27,952 bases of DNA from a virus (lineage: Duplodnaviria > Caudoviricetes): the IMG/VR virus record IMGVR_UViG_3300005573_000243, positions 1 through 27,952 of that record; one strand, 5' to 3'. The position numbers were made by a program, and so were the translations under genes. Below the pieces are notes generated by a model that saw nothing but the letters and a program-made list of their open reading frames with translations, was not told the DNA's origin and ran no database searches. Shown here piece by piece: positions 17,946 through 27,952 of the stretch. Positions within the stretch are counted from its first letter, which is position 1. Each line of letters starts with the position of its first letter.

Positions 17946-19121
17946 CTATGGATATTTTTTAACTTCAGTTTGAACATAACCTTCCTTCTCAATATGAGCA
18001 GGAATATAAGTCGCTTTATTTACTGTTACTGGTTTATAACTTGCCTTATTTACTTCTACCTTCCATCTAAATAGAAATGCTTTTGCTATTGCACTTCCGC
18101 CAACTTTAACTAATCCACTTCCAATATAGCTTTTTATCTTTGAAACTAATGCTGTTCCTCCCGTTTGAATTTTACCACTGCCAACATAGGCTTTTGTTTT
18201 AGAAATTATTGCCTGTCCACTTGTCTGAATTAAACCACCACCAACATAGTTTTTTATCTTCGATACACTTGCCGTTCCACCTGTCTGTATCTGTCCTGAA
18301 CCGATATAAGCCTTTACCTTTGATAATAATGCCTGTCCGCTTACCTGAATTAAACCACCACCAATATAAGAAAATATTCTGAACTTTGAAGTCTGTGCCT
18401 GTCCACTTGTCTGAATTAAGCCACTACCTATATAAGCCTTTGTCTTAGAAACCGCCGCCTGTCCACTTGTCTGAATTAAGCCACTACCTACATAAGCTTT
18501 TGTTTTAGAAATTACCGCTTGTCCACTCGTCTGTATTTGCCCACTACCTACATAACTTTTTGTCTTTGATACGCTCGCTGACCCGCTTGTCTGTATTAAG
18601 CCTGAACCTGTATAAGTATAAGTATTAACCGCCGTGTAATAAACCGTTATCCGAATGTGGTCAATGTAAGAAATACTATTGGCCGCATAGCCTCTGCAAG
18701 CAATTGCCATTCCAAAATTAGATGCATTTATATCAGCTGCTGTCCAGCTTAGTCCCCATAAATCAGTGCTTCCGCCATAACTTTTATAAGTATCAGTTGT
18801 AGGCCAGTTATTAGTAGTATCTGCCTTATTATTTCCCGAAATAGCACCGCCTTTTACAAGTTTAACGCTATAATCTCCAATAGTTCCAGCAGCAGCTTTT
18901 CTTTCTACCTCAACCAAAATTCCATTAATAGTAGCATTAGAAGGAATAGAAAAACCAAAACCAGTAGCTTTTAAATAGTGCGAAATAATACCAGAATTAA
19001 GTGTTACACTTGCATAAACATTATCACTATACTGCGCATTAGCAGGATTACTCCAAGCAACCGTGCCTACTGAAGCATCGTCAACAAAACTACTTCCATT
19101 ATTCGGACCAGCAGAAGACAT
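17946..19121 (-). CDS. Repeat-containing virion fibre/decoration protein
   Basis: N-terminal beta-sandwich domain of about 165 aa, then nine ~20-aa repeats and a short C-terminal tail. Confidence 0.7.
   Translation of the reverse strand: MSSAGPNNGSSFVDDASVGTVAWSNPANAQYSDNVYASVTLNSGIISHYLKATGFGFSIPSNATINGILVEVERKAAAGTIGDYSVKLVKGGAISGNNKADTTNNWPTTDTYKSYGGSTDLWGLSWTAADINASNFGMAIACRGYAANSISYIDHIRITVYYTAVNTYTYTGSGLIQTSGSASVSKTKSYVGSGQIQTSGQAVISKTKAYVGSGLIQTSGQAAVSKTKAYIGSGLIQTSGQAQTSKFRIFSYIGGGLIQVSGQALLSKVKAYIGSGQIQTGGTASVSKIKNYVGGGLIQTSGQAIISKTKAYVGSGKIQTGGTALVSKIKSYIGSGLVKVGGSAIAKAFLFRWKVEVNKASYKPVTVNKATYIPAHIEKEGYVQTEVKKYP
18075..18620 (-). repeat. Intragenic tandem repeat, 9 x ~60 bp
   Basis: Consensus peptide KAY(I/V)GSGLIQTSGQAx(V/I)SKT; one unit is 2 aa longer. 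Confidence 0.9.
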
Positions 19122-21658: not shown

Positions 21659-22081
21659 TTAAACTCCTGCTGGTGCTGCTGGTGGCATTGCTGGCGGTGC
21701 TCCTGCTGGTGCTCCCGCTGGTGCTCCCGTAGGTGGCATAGCAGGAATTCCTCCACCACTTAACATAGCCCCCAACTGCCCCTGCACTTCTTTAATTTTA
21801 GACTCAGGAACTACTTTCATTAAATTATCGATTGCTTTGGTTATATTTTTCCCCTCTTCGGTAGTATAACCATAAATTCCAACAACCTGCTCTAAAGCAG
21901 CTACAGCCCCTGCTACAATAGTATCGGCAATTTCCTTTGAAGATCCTAAATTAGCAGATGCATTTGCTTCTGCTACTGGTGCTGCTCCCACAGTTTGCCC
22001 TTCCGGTGTAATACCTGGTGCTCCTCCTGCTGGCGGAGTTAAGCTTGTATCAATTCCTAATTGTTCTAAAATACTTGGCAT
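21659..22081 (-). CDS. Pro/Ala/Gly-rich head-module protein
   Basis: Helical core flanked by low-complexity PAGA repeats; AAGGAGGT SD. Confidence 0.7.
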   Translation of the reverse strand: MPSILEQLGIDTSLTPPAGGAPGITPEGQTVGAAPVAEANASANLGSSKEIADTIVAGAVAALEQVVGIYGYTTEEGKNITKAIDNLMKVVPESKIKEVQGQLGAMLSGGGIPAMPPTGAPAGAPAGAPPAMPPAAPAGV

Positions 22082-22136
22082 TTTTACCTCCTTTAAAAAA
22101 AGTTAATCAAAACACTCCGGCAAGGTAGGCTATTAG

Positions 22137-22190
22137 TTACTTACGATGAATCCGGCGAACCCTTTTAACTTTGCGTCCTCTTCGTGCCAT
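22137..22190 (-). CDS. 17-aa protamine-like micropeptide MARRGRKVKRVRRIHRK
   Basis: GAGGTGA SD, ATG, TAA; first 12 nt identical to the neighbouring micro-ORF. Confidence 0.75.
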   Translation of the reverse strand: MARRGRKVKRVRRIHRK

Positions 22191-22227
22191 AGTTTTTCAC
22201 CTCGCTTTCTTTTTTTTAGATTAGTTA

Positions 22228-22272
22228 TTACTTTTTCGCTCTTTTAGTTTTCCGACCTTTTCTTCGTGCCAT
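22228..22272 (-). CDS. 14-aa protamine-like micropeptide MARRKGRKTKRAKK
   Basis: AAGGAG SD, ATG, double TAA stop. Confidence 0.75.
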   Translation of the reverse strand: MARRKGRKTKRAKK

Positions 22273-22329
22273 TGCTTTTTCTCCTTTCTTCCACTAAAAA
22301 GTGGATTAAATTTAATAGCAAACTACTCC

Positions 22330-22398
22330 TTACCGGAGTGTTTTTGCTCTTTGCAATCTTCGATAATATCTCCTAAAGTCTCGCTTATTTCTTTTCAC
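22330..22398 (-). CDS. 22-aa basic micropeptide (M)KRNKRDFRRYYRRLQRAKTLR
   Basis: GTG start 8 nt after the portal stop, preceded by GAGGAG with short spacing; stop lies inside the inverted-repeat arm. Confidence 0.5.
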   Translation of the reverse strand: MKRNKRDFRRYYRRLQRAKTLR

Positions 22399-22405
22399 TG
22401 CTCCT

Positions 22406-23971
22406 CTATTCGTTCTCCGAGCCCTTCGGGGTTTCACGTGAAACCTCCTTTTGCATTTCCTGCAAAGCTTTTGTAGCCATAAACTTCTTTATCTTTTCCT
22501 TCTTTGGTAGTGGTAACATATCAATTACAACATCCGGTGGTATGATATTATTTTCGGCAAGTGCCATTACCATTTCTTGATAAGCAAGTGCAGTTATCGG
22601 TGAAGAAGTATGAGCAAATACATCAACCCGGAATGGTATATTTAGAAGTTCTTTATATTCAATCCGAGAATTTACTATGCAATTAGCATAAGTAGTCATT
22701 ACTTCTTCTAAGAAAGCCTCTGTCCTAAGTGCCTTTTTCTTTAAAACAGTAGAAGCAAACTGAGCTAAAATACTTGCGTAAGATGCACTTCTAACATTTG
22801 CCATCGGCTTTCCAGTAAAAACTCCGATTATTCCTGATTGTTCCTTAAAGGACTCCTCATAGTATTTAATCATCTCAAAAACAAGTGCAGGTTCTAATTT
22901 TGGTAAATAAAAATCAAATTTAGCAGTAGGATCAAAAATTTCTATAACTTCACCGGGTGTCTGAAGCTTTCCTTGCATTTCGTTACTTGCAACTTGTCCT
23001 TGAAGTCCATAAACGATAAGTGGTGGTCTGGTTAACATATTTTCGATATGATCCAGTTTTTCAACCTGAGCCTTAATTTTCAAATAAAGGTTCGTGAGAA
23101 AGTGAAGTTCACTTAAGCCCCAAAAGTAGCCTTCTATTGGATTAGGAGTAAATTTGATAAATGGATGTTCACCAGGAATAAAAGGATTAACTGATTTAAT
23201 GGCAATCTGGTCACCTATAATTTGTGCCATATACCAGTCTTTTTTATCGTAGTCATACATCCATAGTTCATAAATCTCCGCATATTCACCTATTTTTTTA
23301 GGCTCAAGTGTTTCGACAATTTCCCTTTTAATTGGAGTTGCAGTAAAAGTTTTAGTTTGCTGATTCTGACTTATAACTATATCAAGAAAAGACTCAGTTC
23401 TTGATGGTGGTGGGGTTATCCTTAACTCTATATTAGGATATTTTTTTCTTGCTAAGTGAAGTGGAATTCTTGCAATATGACAAAATACTTGGTCTTTATC
23501 TAAATTTGGATTATCCTCGTAATATACTGCAAAATCGTAAGGACAAACTGGCTTAAAGTTTATCTTTCTGCCATCAAATATCGTCTTAACAATATATGAG
23601 CCATAAACAAAACTCCAGAATAGCCACTCATAGAATTCTATATCAAGGCAATCATAAATAAACTTTTCGCTTAAAACCCGTCCAAGTTTATCGAGTAGTT
23701 TTTGCGTATTATCATCAATTGTGTATTCAGGATTAGGGACTATATCAAAGATGATATTATCAGGAAGGTAAATTAGACTAACAATATCTTCGAGAGTTTT
23801 AAAGATGTGGTTCTTTATTTCGTTATTAAAAAGAATATTCCTTAATTCCTTATATCTTTCCTGTCTCAATTCAATATTGGAAAGGCAACCATCCCTGAAG
23901 TCAAGAATTTCCTGGTCAGAATAAGGAAATCCATTTTTATTTTCAGTGATTTTTTGTTTTTTATTTCTCAA
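22406..23971 (-). CDS. Portal protein
   Basis: 521 aa at the head of the virion operon; portal-like segments (FVYGSYIVK, HPFIKFTPNPIEGYFWGLS, SGIIGVFTG). Confidence 0.88.
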   Translation of the reverse strand: MRNKKQKITENKNGFPYSDQEILDFRDGCLSNIELRQERYKELRNILFNNEIKNHIFKTLEDIVSLIYLPDNIIFDIVPNPEYTIDDNTQKLLDKLGRVLSEKFIYDCLDIEFYEWLFWSFVYGSYIVKTIFDGRKINFKPVCPYDFAVYYEDNPNLDKDQVFCHIARIPLHLARKKYPNIELRITPPPSRTESFLDIVISQNQQTKTFTATPIKREIVETLEPKKIGEYAEIYELWMYDYDKKDWYMAQIIGDQIAIKSVNPFIPGEHPFIKFTPNPIEGYFWGLSELHFLTNLYLKIKAQVEKLDHIENMLTRPPLIVYGLQGQVASNEMQGKLQTPGEVIEIFDPTAKFDFYLPKLEPALVFEMIKYYEESFKEQSGIIGVFTGKPMANVRSASYASILAQFASTVLKKKALRTEAFLEEVMTTYANCIVNSRIEYKELLNIPFRVDVFAHTSSPITALAYQEMVMALAENNIIPPDVVIDMLPLPKKEKIKKFMATKALQEMQKEVSRETPKGSENE

Positions 23972-24306
23972 ATCTTTCTATAGCCTCCAATTTTCACATC
24001 TTGATAATTTTTAGGATTAATTTGAATATCGATACAATTATCTTTTTTAGCCTTTGCCATTTCGCTAATTTCCTTTGCTACCTCTTCCCCTACTATTCTT
24101 CCTGCTACATCTAAGTCAGTAGGGTTTCTAACTTCAATCTTCTTTAACATTTCAAGCCCCGCTTCTTTTAAAAGTTTTTCTTTTTCCCGGCTTTTCCTGA
24201 CAATATCGTCATAACTCCGGGTATTTCTTTCGATAATTTCCTCTACCGCCCTTGTCTGAATTCTTTTCTTTTTTAAATCTTTAATGATATAAACCAATTT
24301 TATCAC
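23968..24306 (-). CDS. Hypothetical protein upstream of portal
   Basis: 112-aa charged ORF with ATGA overlap with portal. Start is GTG 24306, or a TTG three codons later that has an AGGTGA SD. Confidence 0.65.
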   Translation of the reverse strand: MIKLVYIIKDLKKKRIQTRAVEEIIERNTRSYDDIVRKSREKEKLLKEAGLEMLKKIEVRNPTDLDVAGRIVGEEVAKEISEMAKAKKDNCIDIQINPKNYQDVKIGGYRKI

Positions 24307-24411
24307 CTATAAGAATGATAATTATTCTTAATATCACTTAGACATAAAAAAATATATTTGTCAAGTATTTTTTGGTATAAAAATTGCATTTTTTATCACC
24401 TTTTTTACAAC

Positions 24412-24440
24412 TTGATTTTTTGAATAAGGTTTGTTAAGAT
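24412..24440 (+). promoter_or_regulatory. Sigma70-type promoter (candidate sRNA promoter)
   Basis: TTGATT, 17 nt, TAAGAT with a TG extended -10. Confidence 0.55.
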
Positions 24441-24445
24441 AAAAC

Positions 24446-24515
24446 TACCCTCCTCTCATAACTTCCTCCTTTGCGGAAGCCTTTCCATAGTTTCCCAGCT
24501 ATGGGAAGGCTTTTT
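24446..24515 (+). ncRNA. Candidate ~70-nt small RNA with two anti-SD motifs
   Basis: Lies between a promoter and an intrinsic terminator, has no ORF, and carries CCUCCU at 24449 and CCUCCUUU at 24465. Confidence 0.5.
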
Positions 24516-24524
24516 ATTTTTTTT
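24479..24524 (+). terminator. Rho-independent terminator
   Basis: 12-bp stem GCCTTTCCATAG/CTATGGGAAGGC (one U-G pair on the plus strand) followed by a long T tract. Confidence 0.8.
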
Positions 24525-24538
24525 GGTATTTTTTTTGT

Positions 24539-24566
24539 TTGACTTAAGGAAAAAGCTTGATAAAAT
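24539..24566 (+). promoter_or_regulatory. Sigma70-type promoter, copy 1
   Basis: TTGACT, 16 nt, TAAAAT with TGn extension; similar to 27521-27548. Confidence 0.75.
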
Positions 24567-24583
24567 GGTAAGAAAAACAAACA

Positions 24584-24704
24584 AAGGTGGTGCGAGTATG
24601 CAAAAATTCCAAAGAAAATTAGATAGTTTAGCCAGTAAAGCCCTTGCGGAAAAACCCACCAAAGGCTCGCACTACCTTATCGCAAGGGTTTTTACTGGCT
24701 TTTT
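24584..24704 (+). promoter_or_regulatory. Structured leader RNA, copy 1 (hairpin plus loop-to-RBS pairing)
   Basis: Stem 24630-24648/24681-24700 plus T tract; loop segment 24665-24678 is complementary to 24584-24597. Confidence 0.75.
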
Positions 24705-24732
24705 GGAGGTAATTTATGGAGATAGAAATTGA
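24598..24732 (+). CDS. Putative 44-aa leader peptide (MQKFQRKL...)
   Basis: AAGGTGGT SD-like sequence; runs through the hairpin and overlaps the ParB-MTase start. Confidence 0.45.
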   Translation: MQKFQRKLDSLASKALAEKPTKGSHYLIARVFTGFLEVIYGDRN

Positions 24733-25789
24733 AAAAATAAAAGACACCGCACCAAGAAGAGAACACGGAAATATTGAAGAGTTAAAGAATTCTATCAAGG
24801 AAGTTGGTCTCATTAATCCACTTACAATTAACCAGAATTATCGCTTACTTGCAGGTAGAAGGCGCTTTCAAGCTCTAAAAGAACTTGGTTTCAAAACCGT
24901 TCCGGTCCGAGTGCTTGAAAGTGAAGATGAGCTTTTCGATTTCCGGGTTGCACTGATTGAGAATATCCAAAGGAAAAACCTGAGCGATCCGGAGTTAGCG
25001 GCGGCGATCAAGGAATATGATGAGATGATGAGGAGGCTAAAAGGATCAAAACCAAAAGGAAACATAGAGACCTTAAAACAATTTACCGATTTACCACAGT
25101 GTAATAAATCGGAAGGTTGGACTCAAGAGCAAACCGCCAAAAACCTGAATATCTCTCAACCGGCAGTAAGCAAAGCCATCCAAATAGCCACTGCCATTGA
25201 AGAGTATCCGGAATTAGCAAAAGAGAGGAAGGGAAATGTAATTATCAAGAAATATAAAAGAAAAAAAGATGAAGAGAAAATTAAAAATAAAAAATTTCCG
25301 GTAATTGAAGGAAAATATAAAACAATTTTAATTGATCCACCCTGGGATTATGAACTTAATCTCGACGGCAGGGCAAAGCCTGAATATGCAACAATGGATT
25401 TAGAAGAACTGAAAAAAATGCATATAGAGAAATATGCGGAAGAAAATTGCCATCTTTATATTTGGAGCACAAATAATAATATTCCACTCGCTTTGGAACT
25501 TGGTTCTTATTGGGGTTTTTCTTATAAAACCTTAATTACCTGGGTCAAACCATCAATAGGTATGGGTTCTTATTTTAGAAACAGCACAGAACAACTTTTA
25601 TTTTTTGTTAAGGGGAAATTATCTACAAGAACAAAAGATATTGAAACTCATTTTGAAGCCCCCCGTGGAAAGCATTCTGAGAAACCAGAATATTCATACC
25701 AATTAATTGAAAAAGCTTCATATCCAGCTTATTTAGAAATATTTGGCAGAAAGAAAAGAGAAGGTTGGAATGTATGGGGAAATTTTTAA
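24716..25789 (+). CDS. ParB-like domain fused to MT-A70 family adenine methyltransferase
   Basis: ParB motifs GLINPL, LLAGRRR, ENIQRKNL; HTH WTQEQTAKNLNISQPAVS; MT-A70 motifs ILIDPPW, HSEKP, LEIFGR. Confidence 0.9.
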   Translation: MEIEIEKIKDTAPRREHGNIEELKNSIKEVGLINPLTINQNYRLLAGRRRFQALKELGFKTVPVRVLESEDELFDFRVALIENIQRKNLSDPELAAAIKEYDEMMRRLKGSKPKGNIETLKQFTDLPQCNKSEGWTQEQTAKNLNISQPAVSKAIQIATAIEEYPELAKERKGNVIIKKYKRKKDEEKIKNKKFPVIEGKYKTILIDPPWDYELNLDGRAKPEYATMDLEELKKMHIEKYAEENCHLYIWSTNNNIPLALELGSYWGFSYKTLITWVKPSIGMGSYFRNSTEQLLFFVKGKLSTRTKDIETHFEAPRGKHSEKPEYSYQLIEKASYPAYLEIFGRKKREGWNVWGNF

Positions 25790-26283
25790 TTGACGACGAA
25801 TGGTCAAGAAAATGTGATAGAAAATTAAAAAAATTTTGGAAGCAAATTAGCTATGAAGGGCGTTTTATTTTTGCTGGGTCCAGCTTATTGCAAAAGACCC
25901 TCGGAATCGATGTTATATTACAATCTCAAAATGACGACAAAGATATTACCATAGATACAAAACATATAAGACCAAGAAAACAACAGCTTAATTGTTTTTT
26001 TCTTGAAGAAGAAAGTTGTCCCGATAAAAAGACTTTAGGATGGATTTTAAAAGAAAATGGTTGGCCCGATTATATTTTTTATTGTTTCTGGATAAATGAA
26101 AATGAATGTAAGGCTTATATTATTCCTTTCATTCCATTAAGAGAATGGTTTATCAAAAATAGAGAGAAATATCCTTTATTTCAAAATATTGATACAATAA
26201 ATAAAACCACTGGAAGACTTGTCCCAATTAACCAGCTTTCCAAGGAAATAAAAATTATAGAAAAGTATATTAAAATTCAATAA
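25765..26283 (+). CDS. Putative PD-(D/E)XK nuclease-fold protein
   Basis: GID...IDTK spacing followed by FFLEEES...GW; overlaps the MTase 3' end. Confidence 0.6.
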   Translation: MECMGKFLIDDEWSRKCDRKLKKFWKQISYEGRFIFAGSSLLQKTLGIDVILQSQNDDKDITIDTKHIRPRKQQLNCFFLEEESCPDKKTLGWILKENGWPDYIFYCFWINENECKAYIIPFIPLREWFIKNREKYPLFQNIDTINKTTGRLVPINQLSKEIKIIEKYIKIQ

Positions 26284-26315
26284 CTTACTAAAATTTAAAA
26301 CGAGAAAGATAACCT

Positions 26316-26636
26316 ATGAACAACATTCATAAAAAATTACTATTATCACATTTTTGCCTGAAAGATTGCACTCTTTCCTGGAGTGCAAAAGGATTATATT
26401 CATACATTCTTGACCTTCCAAAAGATAAAGTCACACTCAAAGAATTAGAAGAATATACATCTACCGATATACTTGAAGATAGACAACTTGCTAATATTCT
26501 TGAAGAATTAGTTAAACAAGGATACCTTAAACAGCGCAACAAGAATGGAAAAGTTGAATATAGAATAAATGAAATGCCACCTTTGCTTAAAGAAGCCTGC
26601 CAGTTAGTTGGAAAATGGCAATGTGAAAAAAGGTAA
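26316..26636 (+). CDS. Winged-helix protein resembling the N-terminal domain of phage replication initiators
   Basis: LSWSAKGLYSYILDLP...LEELVKQGYL. Confidence 0.7.
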   Translation: MNNIHKKLLLSHFCLKDCTLSWSAKGLYSYILDLPKDKVTLKELEEYTSTDILEDRQLANILEELVKQGYLKQRNKNGKVEYRINEMPPLLKEACQLVGKWQCEKR

Positions 26637-26638
26637 AA

Positions 26639-27499
26639 ATGCGATCTCCTATTATCTGGTTCGGTGGTAAAGGAAATATGGTTAAAAAACTACTAAAATT
26701 AATACCTTCACACAAAATCTATGTAGAGGTATTTGGGGGAGGAGGAAGCTTGCTTTTTGCCAAAAAACCATCTCCAATTGAAATATATAATGATTTAGAT
26801 AGCGGATTAGTTAATTTTTTCCGTGTTCTGCGTGATCAAGAAAAATTTAAGGAATTCCATCGATTAGTATCTCTTACCCCTTATAGCAGGGAAGAGTATT
26901 ATTTTTACCGTGAAACCTGGAAGGAATGTGAAAATGATATAGAGCGCGCTTATCGGTGGTTTATAGTAGCAAGAATGAGTTTTAGTGGAAGATTTGGGGG
27001 TGGTTGGAATTTTATAATTACCAGAAGCAATCGTAATATGGCGGGTACCTGCTCCCAATATCTAAGTATAATTGAAGAATTACCAGAAATTCATCAACGG
27101 ATAATGCGAGTGCAAATTGAGCATAAAGATTTCCGGGAATTAATTCCTATTTATGATACATCAGAAACACTATTCTATTGTGACCCACCTTATATATCAG
27201 AAACACGCAATAATGAAAAATATTACAAATGCGAAATGAGTATAGAAGATCATAAATATCTTGTTGATTTACTCTTGCAAATTAAAGGTAAAGCACTTCT
27301 TTCTGGGTATCAACATCCTATTTATAAACCGCTTGAAGATGCCGGATGGATAAGAAAAGATTATAAAACAGCCTGTCACGCAGCAGGTAGAACACGATAT
27401 ACTAAAATTTTAGGCAAAGGTTCAGGTATGGAAATGCAACCACGCATAGAAAGCGTCTGGATTTCACCCAACGCTTGTATTCAACCTACTTTGCTATAA
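26639..27499 (+). CDS. Dam-family (D12 class) N6-adenine DNA methyltransferase
   Basis: WFGGKG, YVEVFGGGGS, IYNDLD, FYCDPPY, LSGY. Target sequence cannot be inferred. Confidence 0.93.
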   Translation: MRSPIIWFGGKGNMVKKLLKLIPSHKIYVEVFGGGGSLLFAKKPSPIEIYNDLDSGLVNFFRVLRDQEKFKEFHRLVSLTPYSREEYYFYRETWKECENDIERAYRWFIVARMSFSGRFGGGWNFIITRSNRNMAGTCSQYLSIIEELPEIHQRIMRVQIEHKDFRELIPIYDTSETLFYCDPPYISETRNNEKYYKCEMSIEDHKYLVDLLLQIKGKALLSGYQHPIYKPLEDAGWIRKDYKTACHAAGRTRYTKILGKGSGMEMQPRIESVWISPNACIQPTLL

Positions 27500-27520
27500 A
27501 TACAAAATGAATTTTTCCCC

Positions 27521-27548
27521 TTGACTATTAGGAAAAGATTGGTAAAGT
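27521..27548 (+). promoter_or_regulatory. Sigma70-type promoter, copy 2
   Basis: TTGACT, 16 nt, TAAAGT with TGn extension. Confidence 0.7.
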
Positions 27549-27557
27549 TGAAGAAAA

Positions 27558-27661
27558 ACGGAGGCGCAATTATGAGGAAATATCAAAAAATTAAAATAAT
27601 AAAAAGCCCTTACGGTTCCCACCTAATAACTGCGCCTCCGTGTCCGTAAGGGCTTTTATTT
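27558..27661 (+). promoter_or_regulatory. Structured leader RNA, copy 2
   Basis: Perfect 14-bp stem 27602-27615/27644-27657; loop segment 27626-27641 is complementary to 27558-27573 (15 of 16). Confidence 0.78.
27572..27649 (+). CDS. Putative 25-aa leader peptide MRKYQKIKIIKSPYGSHLITAPPCP
   Basis: GGAGG, 7 nt, ATG; stop lies within the 3' arm of the hairpin. Confidence 0.45.
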   Translation: MRKYQKIKIIKSPYGSHLITAPPCP

Positions 27662-27684
27662 AAAACAAAGAAGGAGAATGAGCT

Positions 27685-27952
27685 ATGAAATTCTTTAATC
27701 CTTACAAAAACTTTGTAGGTAGTTTCATCCCTAATTGCTTATTACAATACCGAGAATTATCTTCGAGTGCTAAACTTTTATGGGCAAGATTAGCGCAATA
27801 CGCAGGAGAAAATGGCTATTGCTATCCTTCCCAGCAAACATTAGCCGATGAATTAGGATTATCCAAACAGCAAATTTTAAATCTTCTTCAAGAATTAGAA
27901 AAAAAACAGTTCATATACCGAGAAGTCCCCAAAGGAAAGGATAGGTTATTTC
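27685..27952 (+). CDS. Replication-initiator-like winged-helix protein (partial; runs off window)
   Basis: MKFFNPY...LSSSAKLLWARLAQYAGENGYCYPSQQTLADELGLS...LQELEKKQFI; AAGGAG SD. Confidence 0.8.
   Translation, partial: MKFFNPYKNFVGSFIPNCLLQYRELSSSAKLLWARLAQYAGENGYCYPSQQTLADELGLSKQQILNLLQELEKKQFIYREVPKGKDRLF

Follow-up and report, generated by a model that had tools for sequence, protein, structure and literature searches.

The window, a 27,952-nt virus record representing a 28-kb fragment, ends within a replication-initiator-like gene that lies directly behind the second copy of a hairpin-forming element, which raises the question of whether the leader RNA of this gene controls its own transcription, and by what means. 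The first-pass annotation had placed an RNA-level switch at this position, and this view is supported by covariation between the pairing segments, by the family match of the initiator and by the persistence of the element in a related metagenome locus (L049) from which the Dam-type methylase gene is missing.

Genome context and architecture of the element

The minus strand of the window carries the terminase, portal and capsid genes. The plus strand carries, in order, a ParB-MT-A70 fusion, a 172-aa unknown, a 106-aa wHTH protein and a Dam-type methylase, which make up the operon after copy 1 of the element (24716..27499), followed by the replication-initiator-like gene (27685..27952, plus strand; HTH_36, PHROG 270), which is cut by the contig end. 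A database protein identical to the window initiator, P0001, has 373 aa when whole and matches PHROG 270 (E = 1e-18) as well as PF13730; its N-terminal wHTH and its internal repeats with QINL units resemble lambda-O-type initiators, and the repeats may be readable as iterons. The combination of wHTH and internal repeats in a protein of approximately 300–370 aa marks the gene after copy 2 as a putative lambda-O-like phage replication initiator. Searches with P0001 returned no match in phages and three weak matches in plasmids. Elsewhere in the window, a 27-nt, 96% inverted repeat (1–27 and 140–166) lies inside a 77-aa ORF at the contig end and could be an assembly artefact. A 17-nt, 94% inverted repeat (22109–22125 and 22328–22344) flanks the intergenic region after the portal gene, possibly reflecting long-range RNA pairing or a structured RNA, and 60-nt (20-residue) repeats at 18108–18616 fall in a 391-aa minus-strand ORF that likely encodes a tail or surface protein.

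Copy 2 comprises, in order, a promoter-like site, a segment A, a segment B, a loop containing CCCACC and the segment A′, a segment B′, a U-tract and the initiator gene, all on the plus strand. The sigma70-type promoter-like site (27521..27548) consists of TTGACT, 16 nt and the extended −10 TAAAGT (9 of 12 positions, TG present) and is identical in L049; the promoter scan finds no more sites than in shuffled sequence, so that the site is not evidence alone. Arm A (27558..27573) occupies the first approximately 16 nt past the predicted start, and contains a Shine–Dalgarno sequence (SD, GGAGG) and the AU of the AUG of a 25-aa leader ORF (27572..27649). The 5′ arm B (27602..27615), the CCCACC motif (27618..27623), the antisense segment A′ (27626..27641) and B′ (27644–27657) follow, the last of these running into U4AU3 (B′ and U-tract together 27644..27661). 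B and B′ form a 14-bp terminator-like stem with an A-run on its 5′ side, and its 28-nt loop holds A′. A and A′ pair at 15 of 16 positions with a single A–C mismatch; A, which ends at the AU of the AUG, is extendable to 20 nt at 90% pairing. The annotation's coordinates for copy 2 and its 15-of-16 pairing were reproduced exactly on recheck.

Copy 1 (24539–24732) shows the same order of parts, with a promoter-like site at 24539..24566 (10 of 12 positions, TG present) and the switch itself at 24584..24704 on the plus strand (A, 24584–24597; B, 24630–24648; CCCACC, 24655–24660; A′, 24665–24678; B′ and U-tract, 24681–24704). Its leader ORF of 44 aa (24598..24732, plus strand) overlaps the ParB-MT-A70 gene, and the copy-2 leader runs open through B and the loop to stop inside B′; both endings are as the annotation had described them. 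A 94%-identical copy 1 is present in a phage with a different terminase (L002/L074), indicating that the module moves between phages. The whole record of L002 (L023, with another terminase and another portal) has copy 1 and the start of the ParB-MT-A70 gene in common with the window at 94%, and several tail-region blocks besides, in a pattern of mosaic exchange. Just upstream of copy 1, the plus strand also holds a candidate small RNA (24412–24514), composed of a promoter-like TTGATT-N17-TAAGAT, a stretch of approximately 75 nt and a strong terminator. It presents two unpaired anti-SD-like pyrimidine tracts (24448–24459 and 24462–24472), and its predicted pairing with the A arms is no more than weak. 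L013 and L049 carry an identical version; none was found in L023.

Covariation and predicted folding of the two helices

A scanner designed to detect terminator-like stems with a loop complementary to sequence further upstream gave exactly two matches in the window, copies 2 and 1 (scores of 35 and 33), whereas 3 of 117 block-wise dinucleotide shuffles contained any match, with a best score of 32. The folding z-score by itself is modest (−2.31). Further copies, which the annotation had suggested looking for, were absent from the window by both the scanner and a covariance model. Rfam yielded no match at E ≤ 5 for window positions 22000–27952 and none at E ≤ 2 for L049 or for three further loci with the same layout (L037, L099 and L035, described below). 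The terminator listing of the promoter/terminator scan omits the copy-2 hairpin, the 28-nt loop of which is atypical for an intrinsic terminator.

In copy 2, A:A′ is part of the best predicted fold (−32.1 kcal/mol), and the B:B′ hairpin wins when A is blocked (−23.5 kcal/mol). In copy 1, A:A′ is predicted to lead up to a length of 124 nt, with the longer B:B′ stem prevailing at full length. Co-transcriptional folding prediction places the formation of A:A′ before B′ is made in both copies. The helices interleave in the order A-B-A′-B′ and each exceeds one turn, so that A:A′ and B:B′ are likely to be mutually exclusive on the nascent RNA.

A hairpin pattern search found 87 metagenome loci and 36 genome loci, among them L049, which is 99.87% identical to window positions 23470–26600 (3.1 kb). 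In L049 the Dam gene is missing. The copy-2 promoter is unchanged there, the leader behind it is different, and further downstream come an additional O-like wHTH gene of 105 aa and the beginning of the same initiator. Its A:A′ helix is fully Watson–Crick (18 of 18 pairs). Relative to window copy 2, 7 of 14 positions in A differ and all seven are compensated in A′, against a two-sided change at only 1 of 13 positions in B:B′ (Fisher p = 0.02); A:A′ thus turns over faster, as expected of a specificity determinant. Across four rows, representing three alleles (copy 1, copy 2 and L049), two-sided changes affect 10 of 16 A:A′ pairs and 2 of 13 B:B′ pairs. None of 500 shuffles reaches the observed level, and in slid controls pairing drops to 32–52%. 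The sample is small, three alleles having been found, and relatedness inflates such tests, but the compensation is plain cell by cell. Scans for more alleles among viral sequences returned only relatives of copy 1 or chance matches; among 50,697 phage records, blastn matches were all short and attributable to chance, and a separate pattern search covering 401 genomes from a single guessed host phylum returned 7 matches vs 6 control matches, with the B arm in none of the seven.

These features make it very probable that copy 2 is a real, conserved two-state RNA element. The contrary reading, a constitutive terminator for the upstream operon combined with inverted repeats at the DNA level (operator sites or template-switch products), finds some support in the perfect A:A′ match of L049, as inverted copying would give. 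We nevertheless judge it extremely improbable: other alleles have G-U pairs on the sense strand, the absence of Dam leaves the element and its promoter in place, and a protein operator would not tolerate 7 changes in 14 positions. In copy 1, L049, L099 and L037 the strand favoured by the G-U pairs is the plus strand; in copy 2, by contrast, the single mismatch would become a G-U pair on the minus strand. The persistence of the element without Dam likewise argues against a mere constitutive terminator of the methylase operon, the outcome that the annotation had named as fatal to its proposal, and no convergent gene is in view for the bidirectional termination that it had allowed for. The divergence of A is no faster than that of the neighbouring spacer (7 of 14 vs 12 of 28), so that drift with compensation, or inverted copying, could yield the same picture.

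Predicted duplexes between cognate segments range from −19 to −30 kcal/mol and non-cognate ones are no stronger than −15 kcal/mol, except for the near-identical pair L099/L035 at −21 kcal/mol; the alleles are accordingly predicted by the energy model not to cross-pair. The CCCACC motif is present in both loops (27618 and 24655), invariant in all three alleles, and thus unchanged between L049 and window copy 2. It had been proposed as a possible means of co-regulating the initiator with the methylation operon, and a search for a GGUGGG-bearing RNA had been suggested. GGTGGG occurs in the window at chance level (4 sites vs 4.0 expected), and the only one of these sites on the plus strand falls within the portal gene, which is encoded on the other strand. 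The copy-2 loop pairs only weakly with the copy-1 arm, at −15.2 kcal/mol vs −29.5 kcal/mol for the cognate pair. The proposed co-regulation through CCCACC is accordingly not supported within this 28-kb fragment, a partner being conceivable in the rest of the genome. Elsewhere in the window, the strongest trans pairing partners for the loops are G-rich stretches that match with gaps. The pairing with the copy-1 arm through CCCACC is predicted to be weak for both the window copy-2 loop and the L049 loop (−12.8 kcal/mol for the latter), and weak cross-talk between copies is one option for the motif; a protein or nuclease site is equally possible.

A putative self-antisense attenuator and competing readings

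We hold with about even confidence that copy 2 may be a self-antisense transcription attenuator of the replication genes, in which the loops of earlier leader RNAs would trigger termination in trans. On the nascent RNA, A would pair with A′ first, the terminator would be blocked and the polymerase would read into the initiator gene. Read-through is the predicted outcome without outside input, since A:A′ should have formed by the time B′ appears and B or B′ would in addition be covered by any coupled ribosome; for the terminator to form, A would have to be occupied by something else. The A′ segments in the loops of earlier leader RNAs would then bind A in trans, blocking both A:A′ and ribosome loading, and the terminator would form; A lies at the free 5′ end, where loop-to-strand pairing should be easiest. 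A stable hairpin RNA would presumably build up, probably needing removal of its own A. The result would be negative feedback on the replication genes, on first and then off, with an allele specificity like that of phage immunity or plasmid incompatibility, and leader translation would serve as a second input to read-through. This reading is built on the layout, the alternative helices, the covariation and the initiator, and on the predictions that A:A′ forms first, that the terminator is the best fold when A is blocked and that alleles do not cross-pair; transcription, termination, the build-up of hairpin RNA and action in trans are the steps that it would add. Against it, the released copy-2 and L049 RNAs of approximately 105 nt are predicted to refold into A:A′ (for L049, −31.2 kcal/mol vs −19.5 kcal/mol for the terminator), hiding A′ unless the 5′ end is processed, and the large loop would be unusual for the terminator on which it depends.

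The leader ORF bears on a second reading. Relative to an AUG, A spans −14 to −1 in all three alleles, with the GG of the SD retained at −9/−8. The frame that starts at this AUG stays open as far as B′ (chance of about 0.2 each), whereas the other two frames stop early. The L049 leader, at 27 aa, differs in length from that of window copy 2, yet both end at the same point in B′. A translatable leader overlapping alternative structures, the defining feature of leader-peptide attenuators, is thus found in three of three alleles. The main rival to the self-antisense attenuator is a ribosome-gated attenuator acting only in cis, in which a lagging ribosome on A would block A:A′ and allow the terminator to form, and the lack of loading (translation stress) or tight coupling would lead to read-through, so that the element would sense host translation for the induction of replication. 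The conserved placement of A, the SD, the open frame and the common stop of both copy-2 alleles all fit this rival, and the retention of SD, AUG and frame therefore does not single out the self-antisense attenuator. The rival is on balance unlikely, though to be taken seriously: L099 and L035 have the layout without an SD in A, the leader peptides are unrelated, and the faster turnover of A:A′ than of B:B′ is left unexplained. No regulatory codon run or stalling peptide is common to the three leader peptides, in which CCCACC is read in different frames. The leader is likely translated, and the peptide itself is probably not the point, as judged from sequence. A type I toxin was considered and ruled out, the leader peptides being neither hydrophobic nor conserved.

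Control could also operate at the level of translation with little termination, A:A′ sequestering the leader SD, leader translation being coupled to or opening the downstream gene, and B:B′ serving as a stability or processing hairpin. The 17-nt overlap of the copy-1 leader with the next gene and the large loop, which may make termination less efficient, speak for this reading, and IsrK/orf45 and C4/icd are precedents for action via translation. We regard such control as improbable, given that the copy-2 leader stops 35 nt before the initiator, whose own SD is unpaired, and that a U-tract is present after B′ in every allele as well as in L099, L035 and L037.

The annotation had described the arrangement as plasmid-style RNA control, and a reading of the pT181/pIP501 type would have a separate minus-strand countertranscript cover A and trigger the terminator, with A′ as an internal 'pre-emptor' partner only. 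The same cis logic is described for pT181 (in part of PMC5703833), and weak minus-strand promoter-like sites (7 of 12 positions) lie within both window copies. These sites are poor (7–8 of 12 across the leaders, not conserved in place across the three alleles), none is above the promoter-scan threshold, L049 is without one at the matching place, and no minus-strand terminator is listed behind A, making this reading decidedly improbable. Plasmid-style control in the form proposed is therefore not borne out, since pT181 and pIP501 use a separate antisense RNA, and the P4 CI and P1 C4 systems are closer.

Comparison with known systems and wider occurrence

The P4 CI RNA ends transcription of the replication genes by pairing with seqA and seqC, and variation in the C4 loops underlies the heteroimmunity of P1 and P7, according to sections of PMC4825925 and of PMC12197685 and PMC5320573, respectively. 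By analogy, the self-antisense attenuator would in its working be most like P4 CI/seqA, in which termination ahead of replication genes is brought about by RNA from the same leader, but within one hairpin. As in P4, the antisense is part of the same transcript, downstream of a promoter-proximal target, and premature termination would take place ahead of replication genes (PMC4825925, in part). P4 CI differs in being a separate processed RNA and an RNase P substrate with a second target, seqC; here a single antisense stretch of 14–18 nt lies in the loop of a terminator-like hairpin and is directed against a leader-ORF SD. Downstream second targets of the seqC or a2/b2 type were not found in the window copies (pairing scores of 13 and 17 vs 35 and 33 upstream), and the covariance model built from the element (R1) had no match in the P4 or P1 stretches.

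The C4 RNA of P1/P7 (Rfam RF01695) shares the order of promoter, target (a1, b1) and antisense in one transcript, the presentation of antisense against a ribosome-binding site in a loop, and a variable loop that confers specificity and heteroimmunity (sections of PMC5320573 and PMC12197685). It differs, in the same sections, in having three stems and two short loops of 7–8 nt, in acting on icd-ant translation via a2/b2, and in controlling an antirepressor. Compared with the C4 family, as represented by the P1 annotation, the sections cited above and entries of PMC2864571, the element has the antisense in the same transcript; the C4 covariance model and the multi-stem fold with two short antisense loops were not recovered (no Rfam match, single hairpin). 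On sequence grounds the element is not a member of the P4 CI family or of the P1/P7 C4 family.

IsrK of Gifsy-1 resembles the element in that a short terminated leader exists beside a read-through form, with alternative structures and a small ORF, and in that the short form regulates its own message in trans; unlike here, where the terminator loop would repress, IsrK is an activator of translation with its antisense part in the 5′ portion (both from portions of PMC4825925). As with pT181 and pIP501, the element combines an antiterminator pairing, open to pre-emption by antisense RNA, with a terminator that precedes a replication initiator, whereas their antisense RNA is separate with its own promoter, and here the anti-A segment lies in the sense strand with no conserved minus-strand promoter (compared with parts of PMC5703833). 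A terminator ahead of rep that is pre-empted by alternative pairing is indicated here by the predicted folds and by the covariation of both helices. No description of the one-hairpin layout was found in the open-access literature.

The 123 loci of the pattern search yielded 77 distinct hairpins, most of them ordinary pattern matches, of which six scored at least 28: two copy-1 variants, window copy 2, L099, L035 and L037. L099 and L035 display the same layout with a promoter-like site and an arm A that lies right at the start but contains no SD; the core logic therefore need not involve the ribosome. Their frame is not conserved, and one pair is lost on both sides between the two. L037 is flanked by an integrase upstream and a primase-like gene downstream, and 7 nt of its A are repeated at the downstream start, like P4 seqC or P1 a2/b2. 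The B sequence common to L099, L035 and L037 is an artefact of the search pattern. L099/L035 and L037 are unrelated mobile elements that share the layout. One GC-rich locus, L033, reached 28 only when the upstream search range was lengthened, and we regard it as a chance match. The pattern also matched L072, L085, L060, L062 and L042, which appear to resemble the stem of the cyclic-di-GMP-I riboswitch and which we take to be unrelated to the switch.

We tentatively propose, with less confidence than for copy 2 itself, that the layout may constitute a minimal, portable immunity or incompatibility module made of RNA only, with promoter, target and antisense in approximately 105 nt and a terminator that would be its own trans-acting repressor. 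Its 14-nt address would be swapped between near-identical phages, such that each replicon or operon is shut off only by its own kind, and its recurrence in unrelated phages and integrative elements would define an undescribed class beside P4 CI and C4. If true, RNA-based control of replication and immunity would be wider and simpler than in P4, P1/P7 and a few relatives in Enterobacteria, the main systems in which it has been described, and could explain how replication is tuned without a protein repressor in some phages and integrative elements. The three natural alleles, predicted to be orthogonal, offer ready-made specificity controls and, if the trans model holds, compact orthogonal attenuator parts.

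The element is not fixed to this initiator family, as none of 12 distant initiator loci (L009–L011 and L149–L157) passed the scanner ahead of the gene. By eye, a 7-bp version is discernible at two of these distant homologues, each behind a primase-like ORF (L149, approximately 2410–2540; L150, approximately 2720–2890), where a terminator-like hairpin has a loop of 7–9 nt that is complementary over 7 nt to an upstream motif. One of the two has CCCAC in the loop and its complement upstream, and in L150 both motifs lie in the loops of two hairpins, which may form a kissing pair.
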